Source: Candidatus Hydrogenedentota bacterium (lineage in GTDB: Bacteria > Hydrogenedentota > Hydrogenedentia > Hydrogenedentales > SLHB01). Taken from it: a stretch of 64,000 nt of DNA. Location: positions 32,001 to 96,000 of the forward strand of contig BTVY01000006.1 of assembly GCA_045863335.1 (NCBI GenBank). Reading direction: 5' to 3'. The notes beneath the pieces were generated by a model. It was given only the letters and a program-made list of their open reading frames with translations. It was not told the DNA's origin and made no database searches. Below, in pieces: positions 9,697-24,695 of the stretch. Made by a program: the position numbers and the translations under genes. Position 1 is the stretch's first letter. Each line of letters opens with the position of its first letter.

Positions 9697-12600
9697 TCAT
9701 GCGACCTGAATACGGTCCAATAGGGCCAAGGCTGCTCTACGATTCAGGTGGCTAGCTGCGTACTGTCCGGAGAAGTCCAAAATGCAGTCTAAGCAAGCTT
9801 TTCGACAAAGCAAGTCGTGATCGGCATTGACATAAAGAATCTCACGGGCCAAGGCCACCCATTCATTCCCGGCGCTTAGCAGTTCACGGCAATGGCCGGC
9901 CCCTCCAGGTGTTACGTCGTATACCACGATGCCAAGACTGGTATTTTGGAGTGGAATGAGTTCTACACCAAGTTCGCGCTCGTCCAATTCGAGGAGCCGC
10001 GAACCTGCCATGGCTAATGCGCGGCCTAAGGAGTAGACGGCGTCGTATACACCAAAGAGTGCGCCCGGTATCTCTAGTAGGATCATGTCTGTGAGTTCTT
10101 TTGCGGCTAGTACGCGATTCCGCAGAACCGGCGGGTTTGGATCTGTTCTGTCCCAACAAAAGCTGCGTGGATTCGCAGAAAATATTGAGGCATGTCTTTC
10201 AAAGTCCGCGGGCAGGCGCATTCGCCCTTGACCGACTTCGATCTCGCTCATGGAAAAGCCACATCTCGTGCACACAGCAAAACCACAATGATTTCTGCCC
10301 GCGTTCCTAACGAGCAGCTCCGCATCTTCACGATAAGTGATGCGAACTCCCTGCATGCCAGCGAAGTCTTGAATTGCTTCTCCGTCACCGCGTTCTGCGA
10401 ACGCAGTCGGACATACGGATTGTTCACCCACTCGTTCAAGATTGGTGCCCAAAGGCTGATCTTCCCAGCCGGCGGTCGTATATCCGAAACGCGGGAACAC
10501 TAGATGTTCCCTAGCAACCGGCTGACTACCGCATCTTGGACACTCCGCATCTGGAGATTGCCGAAGGTAGACATGGTCCTCCGGGCACCTCAATGCGAAA
10601 TATTGCAATCCCAGCGCCTGGTCCAAATTACTGTCCGTCCAGTGTTTTCTTAGGCCACGAGAAGTGGCAACTCGTCCACCAACCAGTACTTGCGACTCAG
10701 GAACGTATTCCCGCAGCGCAAGCATGGAACTGCGCTCGAGTTTGTACCTTTCGTCAGCTGCCGATTCACGGCTGCCATCGGGAACGGGACGGCGCACACT
10801 AAGGCTCTGGAGATTTATGGGAAATCCATACCTTGGCAAGAACCTGTGATCAGCAAGCCACTCGATGACCGTAATATCGGTGAGTGTTCGTACCATGTAC
10901 CGAATGGAATTTGCCTTAGCCATCTGTCGACCAATTTGACTTGTAGGAGTGGCTGGAATCTCGGACCACGCGTCTCGCAAGTAGTTGACGTCCTGTCGCC
11001 ATTCCGATATCGCAGCCCCGAAGGCGATTCGAGCATTATCCAAGAATTCTCGCCAATTCCGAGGCTCCATCGACGTTGACAAGCCAGTTCCTTCAGCAAG
11101 CCGTTGAAATCGAAATTGGAGTCCTCTGTCGTCGTCCTTCAGCTGATTGAGGAATTCAGCAAACGCCAATGCCACATCGACACCATCGTGTGGCCAACTG
11201 GGCCGTGGATCGGTTCTTCGTTTCCAATATGAAGGGGCATTTACTCCACAGAATTGGCCCATACGACCAAATGCGTGCATTGCTCCGGTTCTATCTGGTT
11301 GTCGAGCGCGCAAATACTCTGCCAACAATACGGCGTGAATATGTCTGCGTATCACTTGATTTCGATCCAAGAATACCGTCGGCTTTCTTAACGGACGCTT
11401 AAGAAAATCGCCAAACCTTAGAAAGACTTCTCTGTCGTATTCTGAATCTCTGGCAAAGGTGACGACTAGGGCGGAACCATCTGAGCGCCGTCCAGCCCGG
11501 CCGGCACGTTGCTTATGATTCGCCGGGCCAGGAGGCACGTTGCTCAGCAGAACCCCGTTTAACCCTCCGATATCAATACCAAGTTCCATGGTCGTAGTCG
11601 AAGAAAGGACGTTGCGGATACCCGCCTTGAACAATTCCTGAAGGCGCTTCGTTTCCTGTGGCGATAACTGGGCCGAGTGCTCCTCTGCCCATAGTCCCAT
11701 GCTAAGTATTGTCGAGTTCTTGTATTCGCGCCGTGCACGACCCCACCTTGGATCATTGTCAAGAAATTCCACATCGACGGGCCGTAAGCCCCCTTGACAC
11801 CCCGCGATCGGAGCCCATCCCAATGCCGAACTTGTCCATACCGTACCGGTCGCTTCGCACCAGAAGAGGGAAGCCGGACTTCTTACACTCAGCCGGTCGG
11901 CGAGGATTTGAACTGCTCTATCTTCTTCGTTGGGGCCGGTCTGATGGTGTTCTTCGCGCTTGAGCCACGAGAAACCGGTTTGCTGCAAAACTCCAAATAG
12001 TTGATCAAAGGCTGCGACCAATCCACGCTCCGAGAGTTGGTTGGCATCCGCCTCGGAACAACCGGCGGCGAGCATGACATTCTTCATGAAAATGCGTCTC
12101 AGTTGACCTCCGGTCGCCCCAACAAAAGCCCTGGCACCCCAACCACCGTGATTTCGAGTCAGCCATCGTCCGAGTAGGAGGTACTGTTCCATCCATTTGC
12201 GACTTGGGTTCTCTTGAGACCAATAGAGACAACCATCCATACGCACGGTATCCAACAACAACGTGAGCATGCTTGGCCAAACAGCCCCCAAAGCCTGTCT
12301 CGCCGAAGAAGGCAATTCCTCTTCCAATCGTGGTGGAAGCTGGAGATTGGAAATACCGGGATACACTACTTCGACTAGACCGACCGATTCCGCCGAGGGC
12401 TGGCGCTTGAGAGGACGCTGCAATTCTTTTGCAACCAACGCCTCTGCCTGGGCGCGCACTGCGTCCCTGTTCCTATTCCAGTCAGACTGCGCATATGATC
12501 TCGCTTGGTGGGATTCAGCTTGGGAACGGTCCAAGAGCTCTGCCAACTCGTCACGGCGAGCTACAAGCGATGCGAAATCCACAAACGGAGTACCGGCCCG

Positions 12601-14901
12601 TGCGTGTTCGAGCTGTTCACGTTTCTGAGTCAGCTCACGCGCCAAGTGCTCCCGTAGACCTGGCTCAATCGCTGTGTTGCGAAGCTGGTCCGTAATCCTT
12701 TCGATGTCGCTCTCAAGATACTGAGAAGTTTCCGTACTAGTTAGTTCGCCAACGCATCGCGCAATGGCGGCTCGAACTACTTGAATTTCGTGCTGTTGCG
12801 TAAGCAGCGGACCAAGCCTGGCCGCTGAAGCGCGAGAATCGCTGAAGCAGAGCAGTCGTCGTCCTCCGCCAGGCTTCCAGTTGCTGGAAGGTCCAGGAAT
12901 TGGGGGAAGACCATGAAGCACGGTTTCCGCGGCTACCGAAAGAGCAAAAGGCCGTCCACCGACCAACGCCCTGCAAGTATGCCGCCATTCTGGTTCCAAG
13001 TCTTCGGCTTCCGGTATGGTCCACTCAGACCCGCAAGTAGGGCACAACTGGGGAGAATGGACGTCCTCTCGGTATGCTTTCCACAAACTGACGCCTTGTG
13101 ATCCATGTCCACGGACTTCTCCAAGATGCGGATCGACAACGACTTCCTCGAGCTCTGAACGTCCGCGGTTCGCCAGCAAGTAATACGTTCGATGGGTGGG
13201 TGAGTCGGCAAAATAGCCGGGCTGCAGAGTCGACGTATCCTGATTCTCATGTGCGGCAAGTGCCCACTCGCCGCAATTATCGCACCGGTGAATAGGCAGC
13301 AATAGATGCTCACAGTAGCGGCATACATCCGCGTATGGCTGAAGACATCCAATCGAATCAATGCGGGTACGTTGAGGTCCTGGGCAGCTAGGATTTAGGC
13401 AGACCGACAGTCCTTCTGGCGCTCGGACAAGTAAGTGGAGACGATGAGGCACCAATGGTAGGTCAGATGCCTGCTCGCGTGCAGCCGCGGAAAGACGAAG
13501 TAAAGCGATGGTGGCTCTTCGTTCCTCTATGCCGTCGTTTCCCTCAAAAAGCCTACGCGCCAGTTCTCCGAGGCTTAGAACATTGGCGTCTTCCTCGGAC
13601 AGTGTCTCGGCTAGCTTCCGAATAAGCGGGGACCGTTGAAGTGTTGCATGAAGGAAGCGTGCTGGACAGGCACTTTGAGACTCTAAGGCGGTTTCGATTA
13701 CAGACCGGGCTACTAGAAGAGATACGAGCCCTTTAAGCCTTTCAACGGAGTTTTCGTCATTCTCAACGAGTTGTTCATCCGAAGCAAGTGTCTCAAAATC
13801 GATGCCCGAGGATCGGGCCAATTGCGGAACGCCATTCGAAGTATCTGGCGGAGCTTCAGGCTCCTCGAAAAGTTGTCTGGCGTAGCGACCCTGAATTACG
13901 TGCGTTTGGCTATGGCTATCGGAGAGAATCTCAGACGCAAACTTCCTCAATTCGCCAACAGAACCGCCAAGTGTCGCCGACGTGGCGATTTGCAGGACAT
14001 CTTCGACTGAAACGCCACACCGCTCGCGCACCCTTCTCAACAGCATTGCGATCTCGGCAGCCAGGGAGCCGCTGTAGAGGTGGGCTTCGTCTAAGATGAC
14101 GCACCGAAGATCGGGCCCGAAGAATCGGCTGTCTTGTGGTCTACACAGCATGTACTCAAGCATTGAGTAGTTAGTTATCAGGATGTCAGGAACCCGACTA
14201 AACGGCGGCGAAGCTATGGGGCGGCCATCAGTGGTCTCATACCCGCGGGCCTGCTGTCGTGTCCGAAGTCGACAAGGCTCCCACTCGGGTTCTCCGCGTT
14301 TGTTGGCTAATCGAACGTCTTCGGGAGTTTCACTCGTGAAGTGAAATACGGTAACGTCGCTCTGGCCTCGTAACCACTGGTAGAGGCGATCGACTTGGTC
14401 GGCGACCAAAGCGTTCATTGGATAGAGAATAAGACAGCGTACGCCGCCTTCGGATTGGCGTTCTGGGGCGCTCCATAAGTCGCCAAGGATAGGAAGAAGA
14501 AAGGCTTCCGTCTTTCCTAAACCCGTTCCTGCAGTAATGACTACAGAAGGGCGAGAAACACTGTCCCTGGACGATAGACGGAGCGCTTCAGCTTGATGAC
14601 TGTAGAGCAACCGGTTGATGGGGAACACGTCGTGGGCTTCGATATGCTCGCATAACGACTTTGGGAAGTATCCGTCTTGAGTTAGGGATTCAAGCGTATC
14701 GGAGCCGACTTCCCCTGAGAAAGCCCCTTCAACCCAGAGTTCGCTTACCAATCCTCCCGATTCTCCGGGGCCGGACCAGACAGATTCAGCGGCATCTGCA
14801 ATTTGGGCATCTCGAAAATGGTTCTCCGCTACGGCAAGTTCGACTAAGCGCGTTCGTACGTCTTTGACCAGCTTTAGCGCATCGACATGACTCAAACCCA
14901 A
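9697..14901 (-). CDS. Large SF2 DEAD/DEAH helicase with Zn-binding motifs and C-terminal DUF1998 (Druantia DruE-like)
   Basis: Q motif LYSHQ; Walker A AGTGLGKTE; YPMNALVADQ; TNYSMLEYML; DEAH; SAT; CxxC pairs; FSDSR; TTTMELGIDIG; QRAGRAGR; DUF1998-type 'YDVTPGGAG...CRKACLDC'. TTG start is 14901 or 14895, the latter overlapping the upstream stop. Confidence 0.88.
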   Translation of the reverse strand: MGLSHVDALKLVKDVRTRLVELAVAENHFRDAQIADAAESVWSGPGESGGLVSELWVEGAFSGEVGSDTLESLTQDGYFPKSLCEHIEAHDVFPINRLLYSHQAEALRLSSRDSVSRPSVVITAGTGLGKTEAFLLPILGDLWSAPERQSEGGVRCLILYPMNALVADQVDRLYQWLRGQSDVTVFHFTSETPEDVRLANKRGEPEWEPCRLRTRQQARGYETTDGRPIASPPFSRVPDILITNYSMLEYMLCRPQDSRFFGPDLRCVILDEAHLYSGSLAAEIAMLLRRVRERCGVSVEDVLQIATSATLGGSVGELRKFASEILSDSHSQTHVIQGRYARQLFEEPEAPPDTSNGVPQLARSSGIDFETLASDEQLVENDENSVERLKGLVSLLVARSVIETALESQSACPARFLHATLQRSPLIRKLAETLSEEDANVLSLGELARRLFEGNDGIEERRATIALLRLSAAAREQASDLPLVPHRLHLLVRAPEGLSVCLNPSCPGPQRTRIDSIGCLQPYADVCRYCEHLLLPIHRCDNCGEWALAAHENQDTSTLQPGYFADSPTHRTYYLLANRGRSELEEVVVDPHLGEVRGHGSQGVSLWKAYREDVHSPQLCPTCGSEWTIPEAEDLEPEWRHTCRALVGGRPFALSVAAETVLHGLPPIPGPSSNWKPGGGRRLLCFSDSRASAARLGPLLTQQHEIQVVRAAIARCVGELTSTETSQYLESDIERITDQLRNTAIEPGLREHLARELTQKREQLEHARAGTPFVDFASLVARRDELAELLDRSQAESHQARSYAQSDWNRNRDAVRAQAEALVAKELQRPLKRQPSAESVGLVEVVYPGISNLQLPPRLEEELPSSARQALGAVWPSMLTLLLDTVRMDGCLYWSQENPSRKWMEQYLLLGRWLTRNHGGWGARAFVGATGGQLRRIFMKNVMLAAGCSEADANQLSERGLVAAFDQLFGVLQQTGFSWLKREEHHQTGPNEEDRAVQILADRLSVRSPASLFWCEATGTVWTSSALGWAPIAGCQGGLRPVDVEFLDNDPRWGRARREYKNSTILSMGLWAEEHSAQLSPQETKRLQELFKAGIRNVLSSTTTMELGIDIGGLNGVLLSNVPPGPANHKQRAGRAGRRSDGSALVVTFARDSEYDREVFLRFGDFLKRPLRKPTVFLDRNQVIRRHIHAVLLAEYLRARQPDRTGAMHAFGRMGQFCGVNAPSYWKRRTDPRPSWPHDGVDVALAFAEFLNQLKDDDRGLQFRFQRLAEGTGLSTSMEPRNWREFLDNARIAFGAAISEWRQDVNYLRDAWSEIPATPTSQIGRQMAKANSIRYMVRTLTDITVIEWLADHRFLPRYGFPINLQSLSVRRPVPDGSRESAADERYKLERSSMLALREYVPESQVLVGGRVATSRGLRKHWTDSNLDQALGLQYFALRCPEDHVYLRQSPDAECPRCGSQPVAREHLVFPRFGYTTAGWEDQPLGTNLERVGEQSVCPTAFAERGDGEAIQDFAGMQGVRITYREDAELLVRNAGRNHCGFAVCTRCGFSMSEIEVGQGRMRLPADFERHASIFSANPRSFCWDRTDPNPPVLRNRVLAAKELTDMILLEIPGALFGVYDAVYSLGRALAMAGSRLLELDERELGVELIPLQNTSLGIVVYDVTPGGAGHCRELLSAGNEWVALAREILYVNADHDLLCRKACLDCILDFSGQYAASHLNRRAALALLDRIQVA

Positions 14902-17849
14902 ATCCCCTCCTCTCCGCTTAGCGACAACCAGTAGCAGCAGATGCTCGTGGAAATATACTTCCTACCGGACGGAGATTCCCCAACTTTCGAGATGTCATCA
15001 CAATCTTCATCATTGGGCTTCCAAACTTGGTCGCGCATCGATACTGTCCAGGCGCCCACCAAGTCCGACAGATAGTCAGGTTCCAACTGTGCAAATTGTG
15101 CAGCCGCTTCCTCTAGGTATCCGAGTCGTCGTCTGATTTGTTGATTGCTACTGGTTTTGGCAAGCCCCAATCCTGTGCATACGAATGCACGCAGCAAATC
15201 AAGGGTCTTGGTCTTATCGCGTTTCAAAAAGTGCTCGAGACACTTCCACACCAATATGGGGGACACTTTAGAAAGAGTGTCCAATATTCCTATACATCGT
15301 TCCGGGTTGTGCATACTTCCGTCCCAGTTTGTCAGCGCACCAATCGCATCTCTAGCGTGCGCGGCAGGAAAAGTAGTCCAGAGATAGGTTCTGACAACGA
15401 GGTCGATCCCCGAGATATGCTCGTGCTCGTGAAGGCCGGCCGGAAGACTTGAGTTGACAAGCCACGCGCGAAGAAATCGGCACGGAGAGTGGATAACTTT
15501 TGGGGCAAGCATCTTTGCCAGAGTGGGGTGCAACACTGGGGCTCTCAACCATTTCAACATTGCGTGATCAGTCTCTGACAGATCCTGTCGACCCTCTATA
15601 TACTTTCCGATTCCCTCAAGATCCCACCACGCTCCTAGCCAATACCCTTTCCATGTCAATGCAACCGCCATCGGATAATCCGGAAGATCAAGCTTCCATA
15701 CGTGGTTTGTCGAGCTCTTCAGAATGCGGTCAGTTGGTAGCTTCTTTGGGCGCCCGTTGGCCCCGCCCTCAGCTGTCCAATACCACAAACTGTAGCCTTC
15801 ATCGCCCGCCTCGCCGTACTCCTTCGCGATTGATAAGTGCAGGCTAGCAGGACTACCCAACATGGAAGGCTGAAAGTTTGCGACGCACCCCCGGTCGACG
15901 GACCGCACGTCCAATTGATAGATTCTCTCATCCGAGTGCACACTTAATGACTCTCCGAATCCTGAAAGGTCAGAAAGCACCATGCGCCCGTGTCTTGCTC
16001 TTCCGGCGCGATGATGACCTTCGTGCACGTAGGGATTGGGTGTTGCGTCAGGGACCCACACTCGTAGAAGCGAAGTGCCCTCAGAGCGGTTTACCTCTGC
16101 TCCGGGCTTCAGAGGATGCAGTTTCAGATGGCTAGCGTCTTGCCGGTCGTCGGCGCGCAAGATCGCTGCGGCGGCTAGTTTGAATTCCAGCCTCGGCTTG
16201 AGAGCTCTTGAGCTTCCATTGCACATAGTCCTCACTCGAACTGCGCGTTGTCGGCTTGCTAACTCCGGCGTCAAGCTGATTTCGTTGGGCGTTTCCCACA
16301 TCCCGTCCCCAACTGCATGTAGGTCATACGCCTTGTTATGAATGAGGAGACGCACAGAATCCAGATCGGTAGATAGGCCAGAGACAAGTAGTCGCGTCCG
16401 GTCGTTCAAATTAAATGTGGAATTTCCCGGAGTGGAGAGAACCGGTGTAGCCGTCGTCGGCGCATCTTCAACTTGGCGCAAAGGCTGCCAGAGGATGAAT
16501 TCCTCGTAAATTACTGCAACACTATTTTCCAGTGGCGCTGGTAAGCGTATGGCCTTCCGCGCCACCCCTGCTCGCTCGAAAACTTCCAGCGGTTGGCAGC
16601 CTTCAATAACGCACTTTTTGTCACAGATGAGAGCGTAGTGGCGAGCCGGCTCTAACCTCTCCTCTCCGGCGCGCACCAGTGTCTTCTTGTCGAGATCAAA
16701 TACCAAAACTTCACTTGTCAGTCCCGAGTCTGTAAGGTCCCACTCTACGATGTGTTCACCCCTTTTCGACGAAAGCGCCAGCACACTTGGAGACAAGTTA
16801 GGCGTTCTCCCAGCTGACTGAGGTTCCGCGTAGATTTCTTCGTCACCCGTATAGCCGCCGTTCGATTGGCGGAGCCAACGAGCGACTTTTTTCGTGTCCA
16901 CGTACACATCGATCTCTGGAACATCTGTTTGCTCCTGGATGCGGGCTTTGTCGAGGCGAATCTGAATTCTCGGCTCCCCGCCAAGTGGCCAATGAAGCTC
17001 GATATCTGCAATTGGCGTAAACGCTTCGTCGGTATCGCACTCTCCTCCAGTGGTCGATTCGGCATCGCCATGCCAGTCACCGATGCCAAGCGTCTCAATG
17101 CGAGACTTGGCCTCAACCAATAGGGAGTCTATCCAGGACGGTTGGACCCAAGGACTCGATCGCAATACTTGTCGCGCTTCTTCATCTCCGATTAGGCCGC
17201 GCCTATACTGGATGAAGGCTCGCCACATGGACTTGAATGATTCTGAGGCGAGTTCTGGCAGGTCCATTTCGCCATTCAGGTACCGAACCGTGTGGGGTCT
17301 ACCAAGATTCACTAACCATTCTGCTAATCGATTTCTTGCGCCGTGGTACGTAAAGCCGTATTGCAGTTTGATAGTGATAAACCATTGCTGGGTGCCTTCG
17401 ACATCCATAACATGTCGAAGGTTCAATGCTCGAACCGCATCTTCAATCAAGATCTTGGTGGTGGAGGACGGTTGCCCGTTCGAGAGAAACAGTTCTCTCC
17501 TAAGCGCGTGCGAATCGGGTAAAATGCGGCGAACAGCAGGCCATACGGAATCTTCGTTACTCTCACGCCGACATGCTTCGGCACCGGCGCAGATTAGCAG
17601 TCCGCCGAACATCTGTCGGTAGCTTGCGTACGATTCTCCGGTAAACCGCGAAAAGACAACGGACTTTATCCAGTTCGCGGTACTGTCCGGAGTCAGATGC
17701 AGGAACCACTTGTGCAACCAATCAACCTCATGGTCCTCAAGCTGTAGTTCAGCCATAGACCATGGGCGGTTATACTTCATTCCCGCGTCATGCAATTGCC
17801 GAAAGACTTGCTCCAACGTTGCCAATTGGGGACAAAGATCTTGCCACAC
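14892..17849 (-). CDS. 985-aa hypothetical protein translationally coupled to the helicase (candidate Druantia partner, DruH/DruF-like position)
   Basis: Long ORF whose stop overlaps the helicase start; same atypical composition; no catalytic motif recognised. The partner assignment rests on size and gene order. Confidence 0.7.
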   Translation of the reverse strand: MWQDLCPQLATLEQVFRQLHDAGMKYNRPWSMAELQLEDHEVDWLHKWFLHLTPDSTANWIKSVVFSRFTGESYASYRQMFGGLLICAGAEACRRESNEDSVWPAVRRILPDSHALRRELFLSNGQPSSTTKILIEDAVRALNLRHVMDVEGTQQWFITIKLQYGFTYHGARNRLAEWLVNLGRPHTVRYLNGEMDLPELASESFKSMWRAFIQYRRGLIGDEEARQVLRSSPWVQPSWIDSLLVEAKSRIETLGIGDWHGDAESTTGGECDTDEAFTPIADIELHWPLGGEPRIQIRLDKARIQEQTDVPEIDVYVDTKKVARWLRQSNGGYTGDEEIYAEPQSAGRTPNLSPSVLALSSKRGEHIVEWDLTDSGLTSEVLVFDLDKKTLVRAGEERLEPARHYALICDKKCVIEGCQPLEVFERAGVARKAIRLPAPLENSVAVIYEEFILWQPLRQVEDAPTTATPVLSTPGNSTFNLNDRTRLLVSGLSTDLDSVRLLIHNKAYDLHAVGDGMWETPNEISLTPELASRQRAVRVRTMCNGSSRALKPRLEFKLAAAAILRADDRQDASHLKLHPLKPGAEVNRSEGTSLLRVWVPDATPNPYVHEGHHRAGRARHGRMVLSDLSGFGESLSVHSDERIYQLDVRSVDRGCVANFQPSMLGSPASLHLSIAKEYGEAGDEGYSLWYWTAEGGANGRPKKLPTDRILKSSTNHVWKLDLPDYPMAVALTWKGYWLGAWWDLEGIGKYIEGRQDLSETDHAMLKWLRAPVLHPTLAKMLAPKVIHSPCRFLRAWLVNSSLPAGLHEHEHISGIDLVVRTYLWTTFPAAHARDAIGALTNWDGSMHNPERCIGILDTLSKVSPILVWKCLEHFLKRDKTKTLDLLRAFVCTGLGLAKTSSNQQIRRRLGYLEEAAAQFAQLEPDYLSDLVGAWTVSMRDQVWKPNDEDCDDISKVGESPSGRKYISTSICCYWLSLSGEEGIWV

Positions 17850-18181: not shown

Positions 18182-20278
18182 TCACAACACCCCCTCCGCC
18201 TCCTTCGCGCCTCCCTTGTCTACGGTGAAGACCGCGAACTCCCCATCCTCGCCTTGGACGGCCACTCGCGTCTCCTCGCCGACGCGTAGGGAAAACCCCG
18301 GCAGCGACACGGTGGCGCCGGTGTCTTGGATTACGGCGTCGGTGGTTTTGGCGGGGGTGTCGTTTTCGAGGAGGTGGTAGGCGGTGATGAACCAGGCGTC
18401 GCGGCCTTGTTGGCGGCGGAGGAGCATGGGGAGGCGTTCGGGCATGTTGGGTCCGAAGCCTTCGCCGTAGAAGGCGGCGGACGCGTCGAGGAAGCGCAGG
18501 GCGATGCGCGAGTTGCCGCCGGTGTTTAGCGTGGCGGTGTCGAGCCGTTCGGGGTAGCGTTTCGTGTTCTTGAGCAGCGTGTAGGGGCCTTTGTCGCCGA
18601 TGGCGTCGACGGCTTCGCCTTCGGGCAGGCCGGTCAACGTGCCGCGGAAATGGAGGGGCAGATCGAAGGTGGCGTCCTCTTCGGAGGTGCAGTGGACCAC
18701 GTCGAGCAGGACGTTCCCGGCGAGGCAGAGGGCGCGGTCGATCGTGACGCCCTTGTAGGCGCCGTCGCAGGTGGCGCGGACGACGGCGAAATCCTCGGTG
18801 ACGCCGAAGGCCTGGAGTTTGCACGGCACTTTCTTCTGCGAGGTTTCGTTCACGACTACCGTGTTGTGGGCGAGGGTCTGGGTGAACCAGCCGCGGTGCA
18901 AGGGGTTGCCGTAGGGCAGGCGGCCGGGATCGACGAGGCGTTCGTCGCCGTGGGCGTAGAGGATGAGGCCGAGCTTCGCGGGATGGACGTGGCCCGAGGT
19001 GCCGGGACCGTAGTCGAAGAAGACGGCCGTCTGCCCCGACGCGTCGCGGAGCACGGCGAGCCCGTCGGAGGGATCGTTGGTCGAGCGCAGGCGCAGACGC
19101 GTAGGCCGATCCTCCGGCAGGGCATCGACGCCCCAAAGCAGGGCCTGTTCCGAATTGCGCGGACCGAGCAGCGGCAGGTAGGCCGGGTCCTCGAAGCGGC
19201 GGTAGGCGACCTCGTACTGATCGCGCTGTCCCGTGATGGACGAACGCCCGCTGTCGTTCAGCGCAGGATACGTGAGGTCGGGGAAAAGCTGGCGCAGGGG
19301 TCCGTCAAACATCTTCTTCACCGGCGGCAGCGCGTAGAGGTCCATGCCCGCGCGTGCGGCCGCTTCCAACAGGTAGAGGTGCGCCAACATCGCGTACCAG
19401 TGATAACTCGGCGCGGCTTCATACCACATGCCGCTGTCCGTCACGCTTTTCTCCATCTGGAAGACAAAGCCGCTCTTGCCGTTCACGGCCCAATCGGCCA
19501 ATTCCGCGTCACCCATGACGAAGGCCGCCGACGCGACGCCGGCGTTGTGCCAGGACTGCCAGTTCGAGATGCCGGCGTCGTTTCGGCGAATCGTGTCGAT
19601 CAGGGGCCGCAAGAAATGCGTCTCGATTCTCGCGTGATCCTCCGGCGTAAAGCAGGGCGCGTCGTGGACGAAATCGTATCCCCGTGCGATCCGGCACAAT
19701 CCGACCGACTCATCCAGCGTCTGCGCGAAGAGACGTCCGGCCGACTTCGCTTGCTTGCCGTCCTTGTCATGAAGCGGCAGCGATTCGTAGAAGGACGCAT
19801 ATTCGAGCAGGATCGCCTTCGCCCGCTCTGCGTATTCCGGTTGCGGATTCAGCACATACGCGATTCCGAGCGCGTCGAGTTGACTGAAATTGCGGTTGTG
19901 CTGGTAGGTGAATACCACGTCGTCGTACGGCCAGCCTGTGTAGAGCGTGCCGCAGGTCTTGCACACGTGTTCCGTCGGCGACTTCGCTTCCAGACCGCCG
20001 CCGTCCTTCTCGCAAGTGTACCAATGCGACCACTGCCCGCCCTGGTGCGGAATGTCGATGGGCTGCGCGAGCAAGGCGTCCGCCTGGGCGACGATTCGCC
20101 CCGCGACTTCCCTGGCCCAATCCAGATTCGCGGCGCGGTCGCGAACCTGCGCCACCTCCTCCTGGGTAAGAAACGCGCGGGGATGCGGGCCCGCCGCCAC
20201 CTGGGCCGGCACGGGCTCAAAGGGCGCTTGCGCGTGAAGCGTGGACAGGATGACTGCGAGCGATGCGACGAGGTGCAT
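18182..20278 (-). CDS. Secreted alginate lyase / heparinase II/III-like polysaccharide lyase (PL17-like)
   Basis: Signal peptide; 'GRLFAQTLDES', 'NWQSWHNAG', 'GMWYE..PSYHWY', 'PALNDS', 'GHVHPAKL', 'QTLAHNTVVVN'. ATG 20278 has a GGAG SD. Confidence 0.85.
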   Translation of the reverse strand: MHLVASLAVILSTLHAQAPFEPVPAQVAAGPHPRAFLTQEEVAQVRDRAANLDWAREVAGRIVAQADALLAQPIDIPHQGGQWSHWYTCEKDGGGLEAKSPTEHVCKTCGTLYTGWPYDDVVFTYQHNRNFSQLDALGIAYVLNPQPEYAERAKAILLEYASFYESLPLHDKDGKQAKSAGRLFAQTLDESVGLCRIARGYDFVHDAPCFTPEDHARIETHFLRPLIDTIRRNDAGISNWQSWHNAGVASAAFVMGDAELADWAVNGKSGFVFQMEKSVTDSGMWYEAAPSYHWYAMLAHLYLLEAAARAGMDLYALPPVKKMFDGPLRQLFPDLTYPALNDSGRSSITGQRDQYEVAYRRFEDPAYLPLLGPRNSEQALLWGVDALPEDRPTRLRLRSTNDPSDGLAVLRDASGQTAVFFDYGPGTSGHVHPAKLGLILYAHGDERLVDPGRLPYGNPLHRGWFTQTLAHNTVVVNETSQKKVPCKLQAFGVTEDFAVVRATCDGAYKGVTIDRALCLAGNVLLDVVHCTSEEDATFDLPLHFRGTLTGLPEGEAVDAIGDKGPYTLLKNTKRYPERLDTATLNTGGNSRIALRFLDASAAFYGEGFGPNMPERLPMLLRRQQGRDAWFITAYHLLENDTPAKTTDAVIQDTGATVSLPGFSLRVGEETRVAVQGEDGEFAVFTVDKGGAKEAEGVL

Positions 20279-20413
20279 GAGTAACTCCACGATAACGGTT
20301 GGTTCACGATCTCTTCGTGAAAGGTTCGCAGGGCGGGCCCTGCGGATTCAAGGAAAGACGGGAAATTGGATCCTTGTCGCGACGGGCTGCAAAACCCGCC
20401 CTCCTCGGAAAAT

Positions 20414-21355
20414 TCAGGGCGAAGTCAGCAGATACTGCGCGAGGGGACCGGCCACGTCTTGACCGGTTTTCTCTTCGAAGACGGCGAACATGGGCGAGGG
20501 ATTGCATTCGAGCACCACAAAGCCGGACGCAGTGCGGATGAGGTCGACGCCGGAGAATCGCATGGAGCAGGCACGGGCGGCGGCCACGGCGGCGCGCCGT
20601 TCGTGTGCCGTCAGCCGGGTCGAAAGGACCGCATCTTCGCCGCGACGGTAGTCGAGTTCCCGGGAATGGATCTCGCCCGCGGCGACGACTTTGTTGCCGA
20701 CCACGTAGACGCGAACGGAGGTTCCTTCGACGAGTTCCTGAAACAACACCGGCGCATAGGCGAGGGCGGCGAGGCGTTCGTCATCGAGATCGCTGGCTTC
20801 GACTTCCTGGACTGTCGCGCCGCCTGCCAGTGGTTTGTAGACGGCGCGTTTCGCGCGGCGAACGAAGGCGCGCACGGCCTTGGGATCGTTGCTGGCCAGA
20901 AACCGGGGCACGGGCAACCCCGCGTCGCGGAGCAGCCGCAACTGGTACGGCTTGCGTCCGTGTTGCGCGTTCACGTCCGGCGGATTGACAAGGCGCGCGC
21001 CGCGGGCTTCGAGCGCCACGACGGCGGACACCATGAGGGCGCCGCATTCGTCCAGCTGGGCCAGCAGACCGTGGGGGCGTTGTTTCAATTCCTTCGCGAG
21101 TTCGGGCACACGGTAGCTGGTCCCGAGCGAGCGGAGATAAACGGACCGCACCTCCGCAGGCAGAGTCTTGCCGTTGACGCGTATCCGGTCCTCGTCGACC
21201 GACACTCGAGCCGACTCAGGGAACGCGACGCTGTCGCACAGAAACGACCGGCCACCCCGGTGGGCGATCTCCGCTCGAACCCGGCGAATCTGCGGGTCGC
21301 CCTTGGCGCCAAAAAGGGCGACCCATGCGCTATGGGTACCCCGCGCCGCGCTCAG
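20414..21355 (-). CDS. ATP-grasp ligase, graspetide (omega-ester peptide) synthetase, PsnB-like
   Basis: RimK-like motifs 'RLVNPP...KPYQL..L...GLPVP', 'VYKPLAGGA', 'PVLFQELVEG..VRVYVVG', 'LDYR', 'FSGVDLI', 'LECNPSP'. The frame stays open upstream of the track's GTG 21205 up to CTG 21355, adding 'WVALFGAKGDPQIRRVRAEIAHRG'. Confidence 0.85.
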   Translation of the reverse strand: MSAARGTHSAWVALFGAKGDPQIRRVRAEIAHRGGRSFLCDSVAFPESARVSVDEDRIRVNGKTLPAEVRSVYLRSLGTSYRVPELAKELKQRPHGLLAQLDECGALMVSAVVALEARGARLVNPPDVNAQHGRKPYQLRLLRDAGLPVPRFLASNDPKAVRAFVRRAKRAVYKPLAGGATVQEVEASDLDDERLAALAYAPVLFQELVEGTSVRVYVVGNKVVAAGEIHSRELDYRRGEDAVLSTRLTAHERRAAVAAARACSMRFSGVDLIRTASGFVVLECNPSPMFAVFEEKTGQDVAGPLAQYLLTSP

Positions 21356-21513
21356 GCTTCCTCACCCAGCGCCAGGGTGGTCACGCCACCGCCTTTCCAC
21401 CAGGCTTCTTCGCCGACCGCCAGGGTCGTCGCTTTGCCTTTGGCCGCGGGCGCGGGAAGCTCGAGTTCACGGATGAACAGTCTTGGTTTGGTAACGTTTT
21501 TGGTCCGCTTCAC
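21352..21513 (-). CDS. Graspetide precursor peptide (plesiocin-like, group 2), two TTxxxxEE cores
   Basis: Hand translation from GTG 21513 (GGGAG SD): MKRTKNVTKPRLFIRELELPAPAAKGKATTLAVGEEAWWKGGGVTTLALGEEA*. Alternative ATG at 21528. Too short for the ORF track. Confidence 0.88.
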   Translation of the reverse strand: MKRTKNVTKPRLFIRELELPAPAAKGKATTLAVGEEAWWKGGGVTTLALGEEA

Positions 21514-21740
21514 GACATCTACTCCCATCGTGTTCCATATGCGATCTCAATTCGGGGATAGCTCCTCCAAACTTACCGGCGAAAGGGCTGGGCATTACAG
21601 AATCCGTCCGCCGACTATGCCATGCAAGTGACGGAATGCACGCGTGTTATTTGTTACGATGCACCCTTGGCGAAATGAGTCGTAACGTCTCAAGTCGGAA
21701 CAACGTCTCTCATTTCCACAGTTGTCGGAATTTGTCTCTC

Positions 21741-22577
21741 ATGAAATTGCGCTTCCAGAAACGGTATTTCCTCGCAGGTTGTCTTTCCGCGCTTCTCGGA
21801 ATCGCGGCATTGGCCGCGATCGCCTTTGCCATGGCCATGGGCGACGATGAAGGCATTCCGCGGGCGACAATTGCCGACACTCAGGGTCGTAGTATCAGCT
21901 ACCTACATGCGGGCGAGTCCGCCTCACAACGAATCATCTACGTGCACGGTTCGCCGGGGAATGCGCGCGCGTGGCTGGACTACCTCAAAAACCCAATTTC
22001 CGGATTTCAGTCCATCGCGCTTGATCGACCGGGGTTCGGTCAGACCCTGCCCGCGGGTCCCGCGCCAACACTGCAATCGCAAGCCGCGGCGATCGAGCCC
22101 TTCCTTGTCGAACGTGACGGCAAATGGCCGATCCTGGTGGGGCAATCGTTTGGCGGGACTGTCGTGTGCCAGGCTGCCGCAGACTTTCCGGACAGGGTCG
22201 GGGGGCTTGTGGTCCTTTCGGGCGCGTTAGACCCCGCGCTGGAGCGAAAGCGCTGGTATCAGCAGGTCGGAGAGTTCTGGTTTGTGCCAAACCTGCTGCC
22301 GCGCCCGCTTCGGAATTCCAATCGCGAGTTGATTCCGCTGAAAGGCGAGTTGGAGGAGTTGGCCCCGCGGCTTGCGACGATAACGAGCCCCGCAATCATC
22401 TTGCACGGCACGGAGGACGATCTGGTACCCGTCTCGAACGTGGACTTTCTCCAGAGCCATCTACCCTCGGAATCCATTCGGGAGATCCGGTTGTTCGAGG
22501 GGCGGAATCATCTGATCCCGTGGTCGGAATCAGAGGCCATCCGCGAGGCTATCCAGACGGTGGCGGTTGGTTCATGA
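21741..22577 (+). CDS. Alpha/beta hydrolase with N-terminal signal or anchor
   Basis: HGSPG; DRPGFG; GQSFGG nucleophile elbow; HGTEDDLV; RNHLIPW. Confidence 0.88.
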   Translation: MKLRFQKRYFLAGCLSALLGIAALAAIAFAMAMGDDEGIPRATIADTQGRSISYLHAGESASQRIIYVHGSPGNARAWLDYLKNPISGFQSIALDRPGFGQTLPAGPAPTLQSQAAAIEPFLVERDGKWPILVGQSFGGTVVCQAAADFPDRVGGLVVLSGALDPALERKRWYQQVGEFWFVPNLLPRPLRNSNRELIPLKGELEELAPRLATITSPAIILHGTEDDLVPVSNVDFLQSHLPSESIREIRLFEGRNHLIPWSESEAIREAIQTVAVGS

Positions 22578-22671: not shown

Positions 22672-23529
22672 CTATTCCAGACTTGCAAGACCATCGAGGA
22701 ACCATCGCTGGGCCGGAAATTGGCCCTCCCTCAGGAATACTACATGGCCGTCCAGGTAGAGCACGTTGATGCCGCCAGGGATGTGGTGCTCCAGGGAGCG
22801 GTCGAACATGATGGGAATCTGGTCGGCCCGAACGGGCAACCCCATGCCCGAGCTGTCCTTCAGCCGCACAAAGTGGTCCGTGCCGGCCGTACCGGCTCCC
22901 GCTGCTGCCACGAGATCGCCTTCGAATCCGCCGCCGCTTTGCTGTTGCTGACGGTAGGCGTCAATAAATGCGCGCGCTTCGGTCTCGTTCGTGACGGCAT
23001 AGCCGAGGTAGAAGTAGCTCTCGTCACCAATGGTCTCCGGTGTTTCCATCACCTGCGTCACATCGGAATCGCTGGGGCAATTGAAGATACTCGGGGTGGC
23101 CAGATACTCCGGGTAGATTGCGCTCGCCGAGGGCGCAAACTCGCCCGGCACATCCGACAGCGGCGGAAGCGCGTGGTCGTGCTCATTCGCCCACATCATG
23201 TAGACGAGGCCCATCTGCTTGAGGTTGTTCTGGCATGACGCCCTGCGCGCCGCCTCGCGCGCCCGCGCGAGAGCCGGGAGCAGGATTGCCGCCAGAATAC
23301 CAACGACGACAAATAACCCGACCACACCCACGGCGCCGAGAATTGCGGCGATCAGGCACCCGTTCTGATTGCCGGAAGTTTTTCTCGGCCTGCCGGGCAA
23401 GGGTGCGCCCACCCGAGGCGGCGGCTGATAGCGCTGGTCTCCGGGGGGAATCGGAGGCTTCGGTGGATTGCTATCCGCCAGAAGGGGAATCGTTCGCTGG
23501 TATCCGGCTTCGGGTGTGCTGTCGGTCAT
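22672..23529 (-). CDS. DUF1559 protein with Pro-rich N-terminus and TM helix (no prepilin cleavage site)
   Basis: '[30 protein letters not shown]', 'IFNCPSD' and the H-X9-DG motif '[16 protein letters not shown]'. Confidence 0.85.
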
Positions 23530-23678
23530 GCTGCTTCTCCCTCCATCCGCGACATGCCCCCACGTGTGCTCGTGCACCATGATACCAAATCACCGGGCCG
23601 CAGCGAAGAGGGAAGGGGCCGCCACCCGCGTTGGGCGACGACCCCGGGAAAAGGGCACTGCAGTTAGGCCGTTGAAGT

Positions 23679-24575
23679 TTAGAATCCGTCGAAGGGTCGG
23701 TTGAAGCGCCCGAAGGTGCGTGCGCTGTCCTCCGTCATGGGGAACTTCTCACTGGGATACCGTAAGAAATTCACGTGACCATCCAGATACAGCACGTTTC
23801 CACCTCCCGGTACGTGGGCGAAGTCCTTCGTAGCCGTCGAGATGTGGTCCCACACGATGGGAATTTCGCTGGATGCCTGGGCGCTGCCCGCGGGATTGTT
23901 GATGTCGGTGATCAGGAAACGTTCCACGCCTTGACGGAGCCGCAGGATAGTATCGCCACCGCCGACCTGAGTACCGGCGTACGTTGACGAGACTTCGAAA
24001 TCCTCGTCGCTGGCTTCACCATTTGTATCGAAATTCTCTTGGGCCAATTCACCCCAAGGAGTATTCATATACTCCGCTTCCGAGAACCGGCCGCCCACAT
24101 CGGAACCCACCGTGCCGACAAGGGGTCCGAGGATGTTGACGTCCTCGGTGATGAGCCAGCCGGTGTAGTCATAGGGCTCCTTGGTGAACTCGCAGGGCTG
24201 CACGATGCCGTCGTCATTTCCTTTCTCCGCGTCGTAGCGCGCAACTGGGTTCGCTTGGGCGCCCCAGGAAGGACACCAGACGACGTTCACGTCCGTAAGG
24301 TACTCCGGATACACGGCAGGCCCGCTGAAGATCATCTCGGGGCTGAGGGCTCCGCTGCAGGTGAAGGTCTGGCGCGGCGGCAGTTTCTGGCCTTTGCTCT
24401 CATTGGAGTACATGGTGAGCACAAGCCCGATCTGTTTCAGGTTGTTCTGGCAGCTCGCGCGACGCGCGGCTTCGCGTGCACGGGCCAGAGCCGGCAACAA
24501 AATCGCCGCCAGAATACCGATGATGGCAATGACGACGAGCAATTCAATGAGGGTAAACCCGAGAGAGCGTTTCAT
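23679..24575 (-). CDS. Prepilin-type N-terminal cleavage/methylation DUF1559 protein
   Basis: '[43 protein letters not shown]' and '[15 protein letters not shown]'. Confidence 0.92.
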
Positions 24576-24665
24576 GGCGCACAATCCTTTCAATTCAGTC
24601 AAGACGAAGACAACCCCACGTCGAGCAAGCGCACATAACGCATGTTTTGTATGCTGAACAAAAGG

Positions 24666-24695
24666 ATTATGCAATAAGGTTATGCTCTAAGTCAA
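24666..24695 (-). promoter_or_regulatory. Possible sigma70 promoter for the prepilin-like gene
   Basis: Minus strand TTGACT-N18-CATAAT in an AT-rich intergenic stretch with repeated GCATAA/TTATGC. Confidence 0.45.

Follow-up and report, generated by a model that had tools for sequence, protein, structure and literature searches.

A self-contained two-gene module, which very probably specifies a group 2 plesiocin-type graspetide, was found in an uncultured member of Candidatus Hydrogenedentota from wastewater and bioreactor communities. The module lies on the minus strand of a 64,000-nucleotide stretch of contig BTVY01000006.1 (positions 32,001 to 96,000; hereafter the window, to whose positions all coordinates refer unless another contig or locus is named), and was found to contain a short precursor peptide gene followed by the gene of a single ATP-grasp ligase. 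The mature peptide is proposed to carry ester cross-links and to inhibit serine proteases. The reference throughout is plesiocin, with its precursor PsnA2 and its ligase PsnB. The features of the module are as follows.

21352 to 21513, minus strand: precursor peptide gene, start codon GTG at 21513 and stop codon TGA at 21354-21352, recognised by homology and by the ratio of nonsynonymous to synonymous substitution rates (dN/dS).
21522 to 21526, minus strand: Shine-Dalgarno-like GGGAG, 8 nucleotides 5′ of the precursor GTG, with a presumed role in its initiation.
21460 to 21480, minus strand: leader recognition motif LFIRELE, precursor residues 12-18, counterpart of LFIEDL of PsnA2.
21406 to 21429, minus strand: core 1, TTLAVGEE, precursor residues 29-36.
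21358 to 21381, minus strand: core 2, TTLALGEE, precursor residues 45-52, followed by Ala53 and the stop codon.
20414 to 21355, minus strand: PsnB-like ATP-grasp macrocyclase gene, about 313 amino acids if the CTG at 21355-21353 is the start.
20711 to 20713, minus strand: Arg215 of the ligase, equivalent to Arg213 of PsnB, which holds a ring-forming Glu.
20645 to 20653, minus strand: Asp235-Tyr236-Arg237 of the ligase (codons GAC TAC CGT), the D(F/W)R loop, equivalent to DFR233-235 of PsnB.

The precursor open reading frame (ORF) was found to extend over 21352..21528 on the minus strand and to encode 58 amino acids from the ATG at 21528, or 53 amino acids from the GTG at 21513. The GTG was taken as the better start because the homologous precursors begin with MKRTKE and because two same-genus loci contain a GTG with no ATG; the GGGAG ahead of the GTG was also present in the same-genus locus L061. 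An earlier note on this DNA had described a 53-residue minus-strand ORF with two TTLA[VL]GEE cores and a Trp-Trp linker 5′ of an ATP-grasp gene with an LDYR motif, and had read it as a group 2 precursor with a variant leader. The sequence was found exactly as quoted, the shorter length is the one favoured by the starts of the homologues, and the group 2 assignment agrees with the double occurrence of TTxxxxEE and with the LFIEDL-like leader. Group 2 graspetides are described by a TTxxxxEE core and an LFIEDL leader motif in which the Phe is needed for binding (bioRxiv 10.1101/2021.03.09.434688).

In an alignment of 23 precursors (A2), 11 columns were found to be invariant. The leader contained invariant L12, I14, L17 and E18 with F or Y at position 13, followed by the presence of invariant T29, T30, E35 and E36 in core 1. 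The exact leader LFIEDLE was found in one relative (locus L059). A second core was found in 18 of the 23 precursors. Core position 3 was found to be variable, being occupied by L, M, Y, F, A or Q. Core 1 and core 2 are separated here by the linker AWWKGGGV, and the linkers of the relatives contain Trp, Cys and Lys, with Cys or Trp beside the cores. A Lys was present no more than seven residues after core 1 in 17 of the 23 precursors and often also before core 1; that such Lys residues might mark cleavage sites is only a guess.

Compared with the 95%-identical relative G005, the precursor gene was found to contain 12 synonymous differences and 1 nonsynonymous difference (dN/dS 0.024), against a dN/dS of 3.9-4.3 for the two alternative reading frames of the same DNA. 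Purifying selection on the precursor is strong. A search of the 6.75-Mb, 99.4%-complete genome with a profile of the 23 peptides returned a single copy (E 1.9e-26). Because a like ORF recurs 5′ of the ligase in the relatives and because of the dN/dS of 0.024, the precursor is judged, from its sequence, to be a real gene beyond chance.

The ligase was placed relative to PsnB, to MdnB and MdnC of the microviridin pathway and to RimK by ranked scores against the Protein Data Bank (PDB) and by fold scores. A PDB sequence search with the mechanically listed 263-residue ORF gave PsnB (7DRM) at E 3.5e-46 and 160.8 bits, with 9bou (67.5 bits) and RimK (52-56 bits) next. With a family profile built from 20 sequences (A1), PsnB scored 278.5 bits over profile positions 2-302, followed by PruB (84.3), RimK (79.4), MdnB/MdnC (60-64) and LysX (44-48 bits). 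The AlphaFold model of the ligase had a mean predicted local distance difference test (pLDDT) value of 92.4 and a predicted template modelling (TM) score of 0.89; when it was searched with Foldseek, ranks 1 to 10 were all occupied by PsnB chains (TM 0.79-0.86, the best three 0.86; 35-37% identity), and RimK first occurred at rank 29. These sequence and model comparisons support grouping the ligase with PsnB, a graspetide ligase, rather than with RimK or LysX, as the earlier note had proposed. The NCBIfam models likewise gave no membership in other classes: rimK_fam scored 87 bits against a cut-off of 143.4 and LysX 54 against 275.6, and for the microviridin ligases MvdC scored 62 and MvdD 57 bits against cut-offs of 425 and 475, with one ligase present in the genome.

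The same scores bear on the explanation that the enzyme is a housekeeping ligase of the RimK/LysX type, beside which a small ORF has arisen by chance in GC-rich DNA. Pfam names solely a RimK-like ATP-grasp domain in the protein, the rimK_fam model reaches its 87 bits and spurious long ORFs abound in the region, all of which would be expected under this explanation. It is nevertheless already refuted by the difference between 278.5 bits for PsnB and 79 bits for RimK, by the fold, which also favours PsnB, by the small ORF, which accompanies the ligase in different genera and which strong purifying selection preserves, and by the finding that the only other match to the ligase in the genome is 27% identical and lies on a different contig.

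The residues by which PsnB binds its substrates were found to be largely conserved in the ligase. As the PDB chain of PsnB is numbered 20 above the residue numbers of the paper, the offset was checked on twelve residue names. In alignment A1 (n = 20), R75 (Arg72 of PsnB), K174 (Lys172), Arg215 and the loop D235-Y236-R237 were invariant, followed by the presence of invariant Y173, R194, L198, V203 and F205 in the leader-Phe pocket (Y171, R192, L196, V201 and F203 of PsnB). Leu195 of the pocket corresponds to Ile193 of PsnB, a conservative change, and the aromatic residue of the loop is Tyr here, where the D(F/W)R of graspetide ligases has Phe or Trp.

A model of the complex of ligase, precursor and adenosine triphosphate (ATP) scored 0.80, and the best of three controls scored 0.00; 116 of 157 solved complexes attain the mark applied to such scores, as do 2 of 215 mismatched pairs. 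The runs agreed in at least 24% of the contacts, with a partner pLDDT of at least 43. In the model, leader residues 10-17 contact ligase residues 173-175, 179-181 and 194-203, and Phe13 contacts ligase residues 173, 194, 195, 197, 198, 200, 201 and 203. The model indicates likeness, not binding, and its pass may reflect the complex of PsnB with its leader, which is already solved.

Ligase homologues were found in 19 of 41 related genomes (E ≤ 1e-20, this genome, G000, included), in 35 of 135 genomes and 25 of 66 genera of the phylum (E ≤ 1e-40, G000 included), and in 25 of 53 genomes of the window's own family (E ≤ 1e-40, G000 not counted). Each genome contained one copy, except G004, in which the gene was found in two pieces. 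The earlier note had suggested a search for small ORFs beside the ligase homologues. Among 18 loci of the relatives, 15 had a like small ORF directly 5′ of the ligase, the misses being L009 (at a contig edge), L019 and L020. In a second, partly overlapping set of species-representative loci it was present in 24 of 33, the misses being L039, L042, L051, L057, L060 and the distant L062-L065, with the fragment L067 left out.

Neighbouring genes were not conserved between genera in the flanks of 12 relatives. No shared peptidase or exporter was found by Pfam among 56 flank ORFs, and none lies beside the pair in the window or in the 12 flanks, in agreement with what the earlier note had stated for the window. 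Because the neighbours recur only within the genus or not at all, the conserved unit consists of precursor and ligase. In the genome, C39 peptidase domains were found only in three giant open frames of 1618-2243 amino acids, which are not ordinary ATP-binding cassette exporters and lie on other contigs, unlinked to the pair, at the following positions.

71795 to 72133 of contig C4 of G000: C39 domain.
4827 to 5195 of contig C88 of G000: C39 domain.
16712 to 17050 of contig C61 of G000: C39 domain.

The lineage is uncultured, as had been presumed, since all relatives are metagenome-assembled genomes (MAGs), and the named records are mostly Candidatus Hydrogenedentota MAGs, some being labelled Nitrospiraceae. 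The loci L034, L038, L041, L044, L050 and L057 carry the title 'uncultured Nitrospiraceae bacterium' (one 'FCB group'); these titles are likely mislabels, because the loci group with Hydrogenedentota both in the ligase tree and by genome relatedness. More distant ligase relatives were found in Planctomycetota, Obscuribacterales and one archaeal MAG. Near-identical DNA was found in bioreactor, wastewater and sludge runs.

The 5′ end of the ligase gene differs from what the earlier note had assumed. Its coordinates (20414..21528) do cover the whole gene, but the mechanically listed ORF (20414..21205, 263 amino acids from the GTG at 21205) is too short, and the ligase is about 313 amino acids long. 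The ligase frame was found to be open upstream to 21361, and the 50 codons 5′ of the GTG encode ...WVALFGAKGDPQIRRVRAEIAHRGG..., an N-terminus conserved in all relatives. Residues 11-41 form a strand-helix-strand with pLDDT 95-97 in the AlphaFold model, and in the profile search the N-terminal part aligns with PsnB from chain residue 27. Compared with G005, codons 1-50 were found to contain 11.5 synonymous and 5.5 nonsynonymous differences (dN/dS 0.146, against 2.6-3.1 in the other frames), and the remainder of the gene had a dN/dS of 0.058. The sole near-cognate codon is the CTG at 21355-21353, which overlaps the precursor TGA (CTGA) and which would give 313 amino acids, nearly the length of PsnB. 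Just 5′ of this CTG lies the purine-rich GGTGAGGAA, formed by the codons of the last Gly-Glu-Glu. The CTG overlapping the precursor stop is likely the ligase start, by inference only.

Among 30 surveyed family loci, in which a canonical start was sought in the interval from -18 to -7 codons relative to the DPQ motif, such a start was absent from 8, three of which lie outside the genus. In six of the 8 a CTG overlaps a TGA stop, L053 contains an ATA over a TAG stop, and L056 contains a CTG at the very position that is ATG in its relatives L043 and L044; a CTG or ATA overlaps the precursor stop in seven of the 8. The layout is common to all five loci of the genus, in which the ligases have diverged to 67% identity and are still open. 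The start-less loci are the following.

21353 to 21355, minus strand: CTG of the window.
Loci L034, L035, L036, L041, L053, L056 and L061: the other start-less ligase genes.

As the start codon is absent at the expected place, gene callers annotate such ligases about 40-50 residues short, with a 263-residue product here and a 267-residue product in the closest relative. Four further metagenome loci (52-62% identity) all had canonical starts, one of them as TGATG; among these four, no close relative was recovered on which the idea concerning the Ala codon and the start could be tested. On a quick tree of 30 ligases, the start-less trait needs four changes, which suggests that the layout arose independently; this is suggested, not shown, because well-supported branches force only one change.

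The absence of an ATG, GTG or TTG in frame between the upstream stop and the GTG at 21205 would also be expected if the module were decaying, the ligase start having been lost, so that either no enzyme or only a 263-residue stump from that GTG is made and the precursor stays unmodified. The truncated gene-caller products of 263 and 267 residues and the ligase of the same-genus G004, split over two frames, fit such decay. It is nevertheless held to be improbable, as codons 1-50 evolve as coding sequence (0.146 against 2.6-3.1, with 0.058 for the rest), all five genus loci are start-less yet open despite their divergence to 67% identity, the contigs of three independent studies contain no indel in the start region, and the same layout recurs at three loci outside the genus. 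In G004 itself, the ligase (L013/L021/L061, contig C10, about 373678-374588) was found in two pieces in different frames, matching query residues 7-210 and 220-309; this represents either a frameshifted gene or an assembly error in a long contig, and the G004 precursor is intact.

Other accounts of the ligase 5′ end were rejected. An assembly error or one-nucleotide indel at the start was rejected because of the three independent studies, and the out-of-frame ATG at 21326-21324, considered as evidence of an indel, is absent from the other same-genus loci. A programmed -1 frameshift fusion was rejected because a TGA in the ligase frame lies three codons before the CTG and the remaining bases contain no slippery heptamer. 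A hairpin was predicted within the first ligase codons, as follows.

21294 to 21324, minus strand: 11-bp GC-rich hairpin within the codons of WVALFGAKGDP, present in the minimum free energy and centroid structures.

The fold z-score of the whole stretch was -0.36, which is not significant, and the hairpin, present in the 95%-identical relative, was not conserved in L061 or L035. An intrinsic terminator or attenuator between the genes was also rejected: the terminator-like site at 21337-21321, with which the hairpin overlaps, is weak, three such sites were detected where 1.5 would be expected by chance, the fold z-score is again -0.36, and a contig of an RNA library crosses the site.

A wastewater strain (X3 DNA library, X5 RNA library) was found to contain three substitutions, at 21339, 21342 and 21432; two of them alter the fifth and sixth residues of the N-tail proposed for the ligase, and no start codon is created. 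The X3 DNA contig also contains a 16-nucleotide insertion after 21624, in the intergenic region 5′ of the precursor, and the X5 contigs end before this position.

From the CTG start, a proposal on translation was drawn, which is tentative and whose chances are put slightly short of even: in this genus, the ligase may be made only by ribosomes that finish the precursor and restart at the near-cognate CTG, the Gly-Glu-Glu codons of the last core doubling as a Shine-Dalgarno-like element. If true, CTG coupling would hard-wire a low ratio of enzyme to substrate and make enzyme synthesis strictly dependent on translation of the precursor, and the locus would be a natural case of near-cognate stop-start coupling that sets the enzyme-to-substrate stoichiometry in an operon for a ribosomally synthesised and post-translationally modified peptide. 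CUG or other near-cognate starts are not mentioned in the two papers on translational coupling that were searched.

For the chemistry of the module, the following course is proposed, in which the reactions, the ring pattern and the target are deduced by analogy. The 53-residue precursor, translated from the GTG at 21513, would be bound through its leader by the ligase of about 313 residues, with Phe13 lodged in a hydrophobic pocket that Tyr173, Leu195, Leu198, Val203 and Phe205 form together with Arg194. Arg215 would hold a core Glu, and the Glu side chains would be phosphorylated by the ligase with the use of ATP, followed by attack of Thr29/Thr30 and Thr45/Thr46 on the acyl phosphates. Each TTLAxGEE core would thus become a ring-within-ring hairpin with two Thr-Glu omega-esters, giving four esters in total and a mass loss of 72 Da. 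The product would most likely be a tight-binding serine-protease inhibitor with the Leu at core position 3 as the specificity residue. Plesiocin inhibits elastase with an inhibition constant (Ki) of 16 nM and chymotrypsin with a Ki of 7.5 nM (PMC10125368, a review), and its potency is reported to increase with the number of cores (PMC13097080). Because plesiocin inhibits both enzymes with nanomolar Ki, the two-core, Leu-bearing product is most likely an inhibitor of the chymotrypsin or elastase type.

An alternative that accepts the same chemistry, but in which the product is a signal, a metal or surface binder or an intracellular regulator and not a protease inhibitor, is less likely, though it retains appreciable weight. 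It would accord with the lack of an exporter or peptidase by the pair in the window and in the 12 flanks, with the lack of a signal peptide, with the confinement of C39 domains to the three giant ORFs on other contigs, with the variation of core position 3 (L, M, Y, F, A, Q) and with the Trp, Cys and Lys of the linkers. Against it, all characterised graspetides were reported as protease inhibitors by 2022 (PMC8939145), TTLAVGEE and TTLALGEE fit the plesiocin motif TTxxxxEE, and PsnA2 and PsnB alone were sufficient to make plesiocin (PMC10125368). Protease inhibition is retained as the preferred function.

Several observations weigh against the reading of the pair as a functional graspetide module. 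Expression of the ligase rests on an inferred CTG, because a conserved N-terminus is present with no in-frame canonical start between the upstream stop and the GTG at 21205; no sigma-70-like promoter was found within 20200-21900; and the locus is spanned by contigs from two RNA libraries, which is not proof of transcription. In NCBIfam, the top model TIGR04187 (ATP-grasp ribosomal peptide maturase) reached 107.6 bits against a cut-off of 350, and with rimK_fam at 87 bits the curated hidden Markov models separate TIGR04187 and RimK weakly. The mark of group 2a is missing, as Arg101 of PsnB is replaced by Asp here (AQLDECG); two positions past this site, Arg or Lys was found in many relatives and Cys in this genome. 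In PsnB the second ring-forming Glu is bound by Arg101. Conservation of this residue is confined to group 2a enzymes, and according to the R101A variant of PsnB it is largely dispensable for activity (bioRxiv 10.1101/2021.03.09.434688). Arg181 of PsnB, the partner of leader Asp18, is Gln here and Arg in many relatives.

The surroundings of the pair were found to contain the following genes.

18182 to 20290, minus strand: heparinase II/III- and alginate-lyase-like protein, 702 amino acids, 124 nucleotides 3′ of the ligase.
21636 to 22577, plus strand: alpha/beta hydrolase with S33 aminopeptidase-like Pfam matches and a hydrophobic N-terminus, divergent, 107 nucleotides from the upstream ATG of the precursor.
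22672 to 23580 and 23679 to 24674, minus strand: paralogous proteins with a prepilin-type N-terminus, the first matching DUF1559 (PF07596).
14892 to 17849 (985 amino acids) and 9997 to 14901 (1634 amino acids), minus strand: very large ORFs, overlapping end to start.

The alpha/beta hydrolase was considered as a part of the module and is probably not one, as it was found near the pair only in the same-genus G005 and G004. The heparinase II/III- and alginate-lyase-like protein was rejected as an accessory gene, none being present in the 12 flanks. The 985-residue protein matched no Pfam family at E ≤ 0.01. In G005, G004 and G012 only, and not in the window, a small convergent ferredoxin (4Fe-4S dicluster and DUF3470) was found just 3′ of the ligase, at the following positions of the relatives' loci.

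9160 to 9537 of L022: small ferredoxin.
9112 to 9579 of L023: small ferredoxin.
7595 to 7930 of L025: small ferredoxin.

Among known systems, the module resembles most closely PsnA2/PsnB of Plesiocystis pacifica (PDB 7DRM-7DRP), with which it shares the TTxxxxEE core, the leader pattern LFI-x-[ED]-L with its key Phe and a single ATP-grasp ligase (a chain of 334 residues in PsnB, 313 amino acids here; 36-37% structure-based identity, TM 0.86), followed by the presence of conserved R72, R213, D-aromatic-R loop and leader-Phe pocket of PsnB. It differs in having two cores instead of four, in belonging to another phylum, in a ligase gene with no canonical start, in the leader LFIRELE, in the loop DYR and in the replacement of Arg101 by Asp and of Arg181 by Gln. 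RcpA/RcpB of Rheinheimera (PMC11626197) likewise form a group 2 system with TTxxxxEE and a single ATP-grasp ligase, for which water losses and methanolysis have been shown. That system, however, contains the peptidase-containing exporter RcpC, a GG cleavage site and the mixed cores TTxxxED and VTxxxxED, none of which was seen here. Microviridin, of group 1 (MdnA with MdnB/MdnC), is similar in its leader-guided ATP-grasp macrocyclase, its Thr/Ser-Glu/Asp esters and its protease inhibition, whereas it uses two ligases, contains a lactam besides the esters and has a cage topology; MdnB/MdnC are 20-22% identical to the ligase here and score 60-64 bits, against the 278.5 bits of PsnB.

No paper with both 'graspetide' and 'Hydrogenedentes' in its text was found in the collection searched, and the supplements of Makarova 2022 contain no Hydrogenedentes. 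A RODEO survey predicts 21,584 graspetides (PMC13097080, ACS Chem Biol 2026); of the 19 Hydrogenedent* entries among the listed rows of its supplementary file 2, 18 are assigned to Group 2 and represent this precursor family. These rows show MKRTKxxTKxRLFIxELERPA... with one or two TTLA[VI]GEE cores, two of them holding a same-genus peptide that has the WWKG linker and is 77% identical to the peptide here, and several family loci (e.g. L036, L053 and L059) are records of that survey. All of these entries are uncharacterised predictions. The peptide of this genome was not found among the rows listed, though it may still be in the supplement, and neither the Hydrogenedentota entries nor the ligase start is discussed in the available text of the survey.

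The module is of use as a compact candidate, with two cores and two genes, for heterologous production of a small bicyclic scaffold for protease inhibition, from a phylum in which no producer has been cultured. It also carries a warning for annotation, as pipelines miss the precursor and call the ligase 50 residues short. Compared with these systems, the pair is an ordinary further orthologue of the group 2 graspetide family already listed in Hydrogenedentota, and the lead that it offers beyond the known family is the near-cognate ligase start overlapping the precursor stop.

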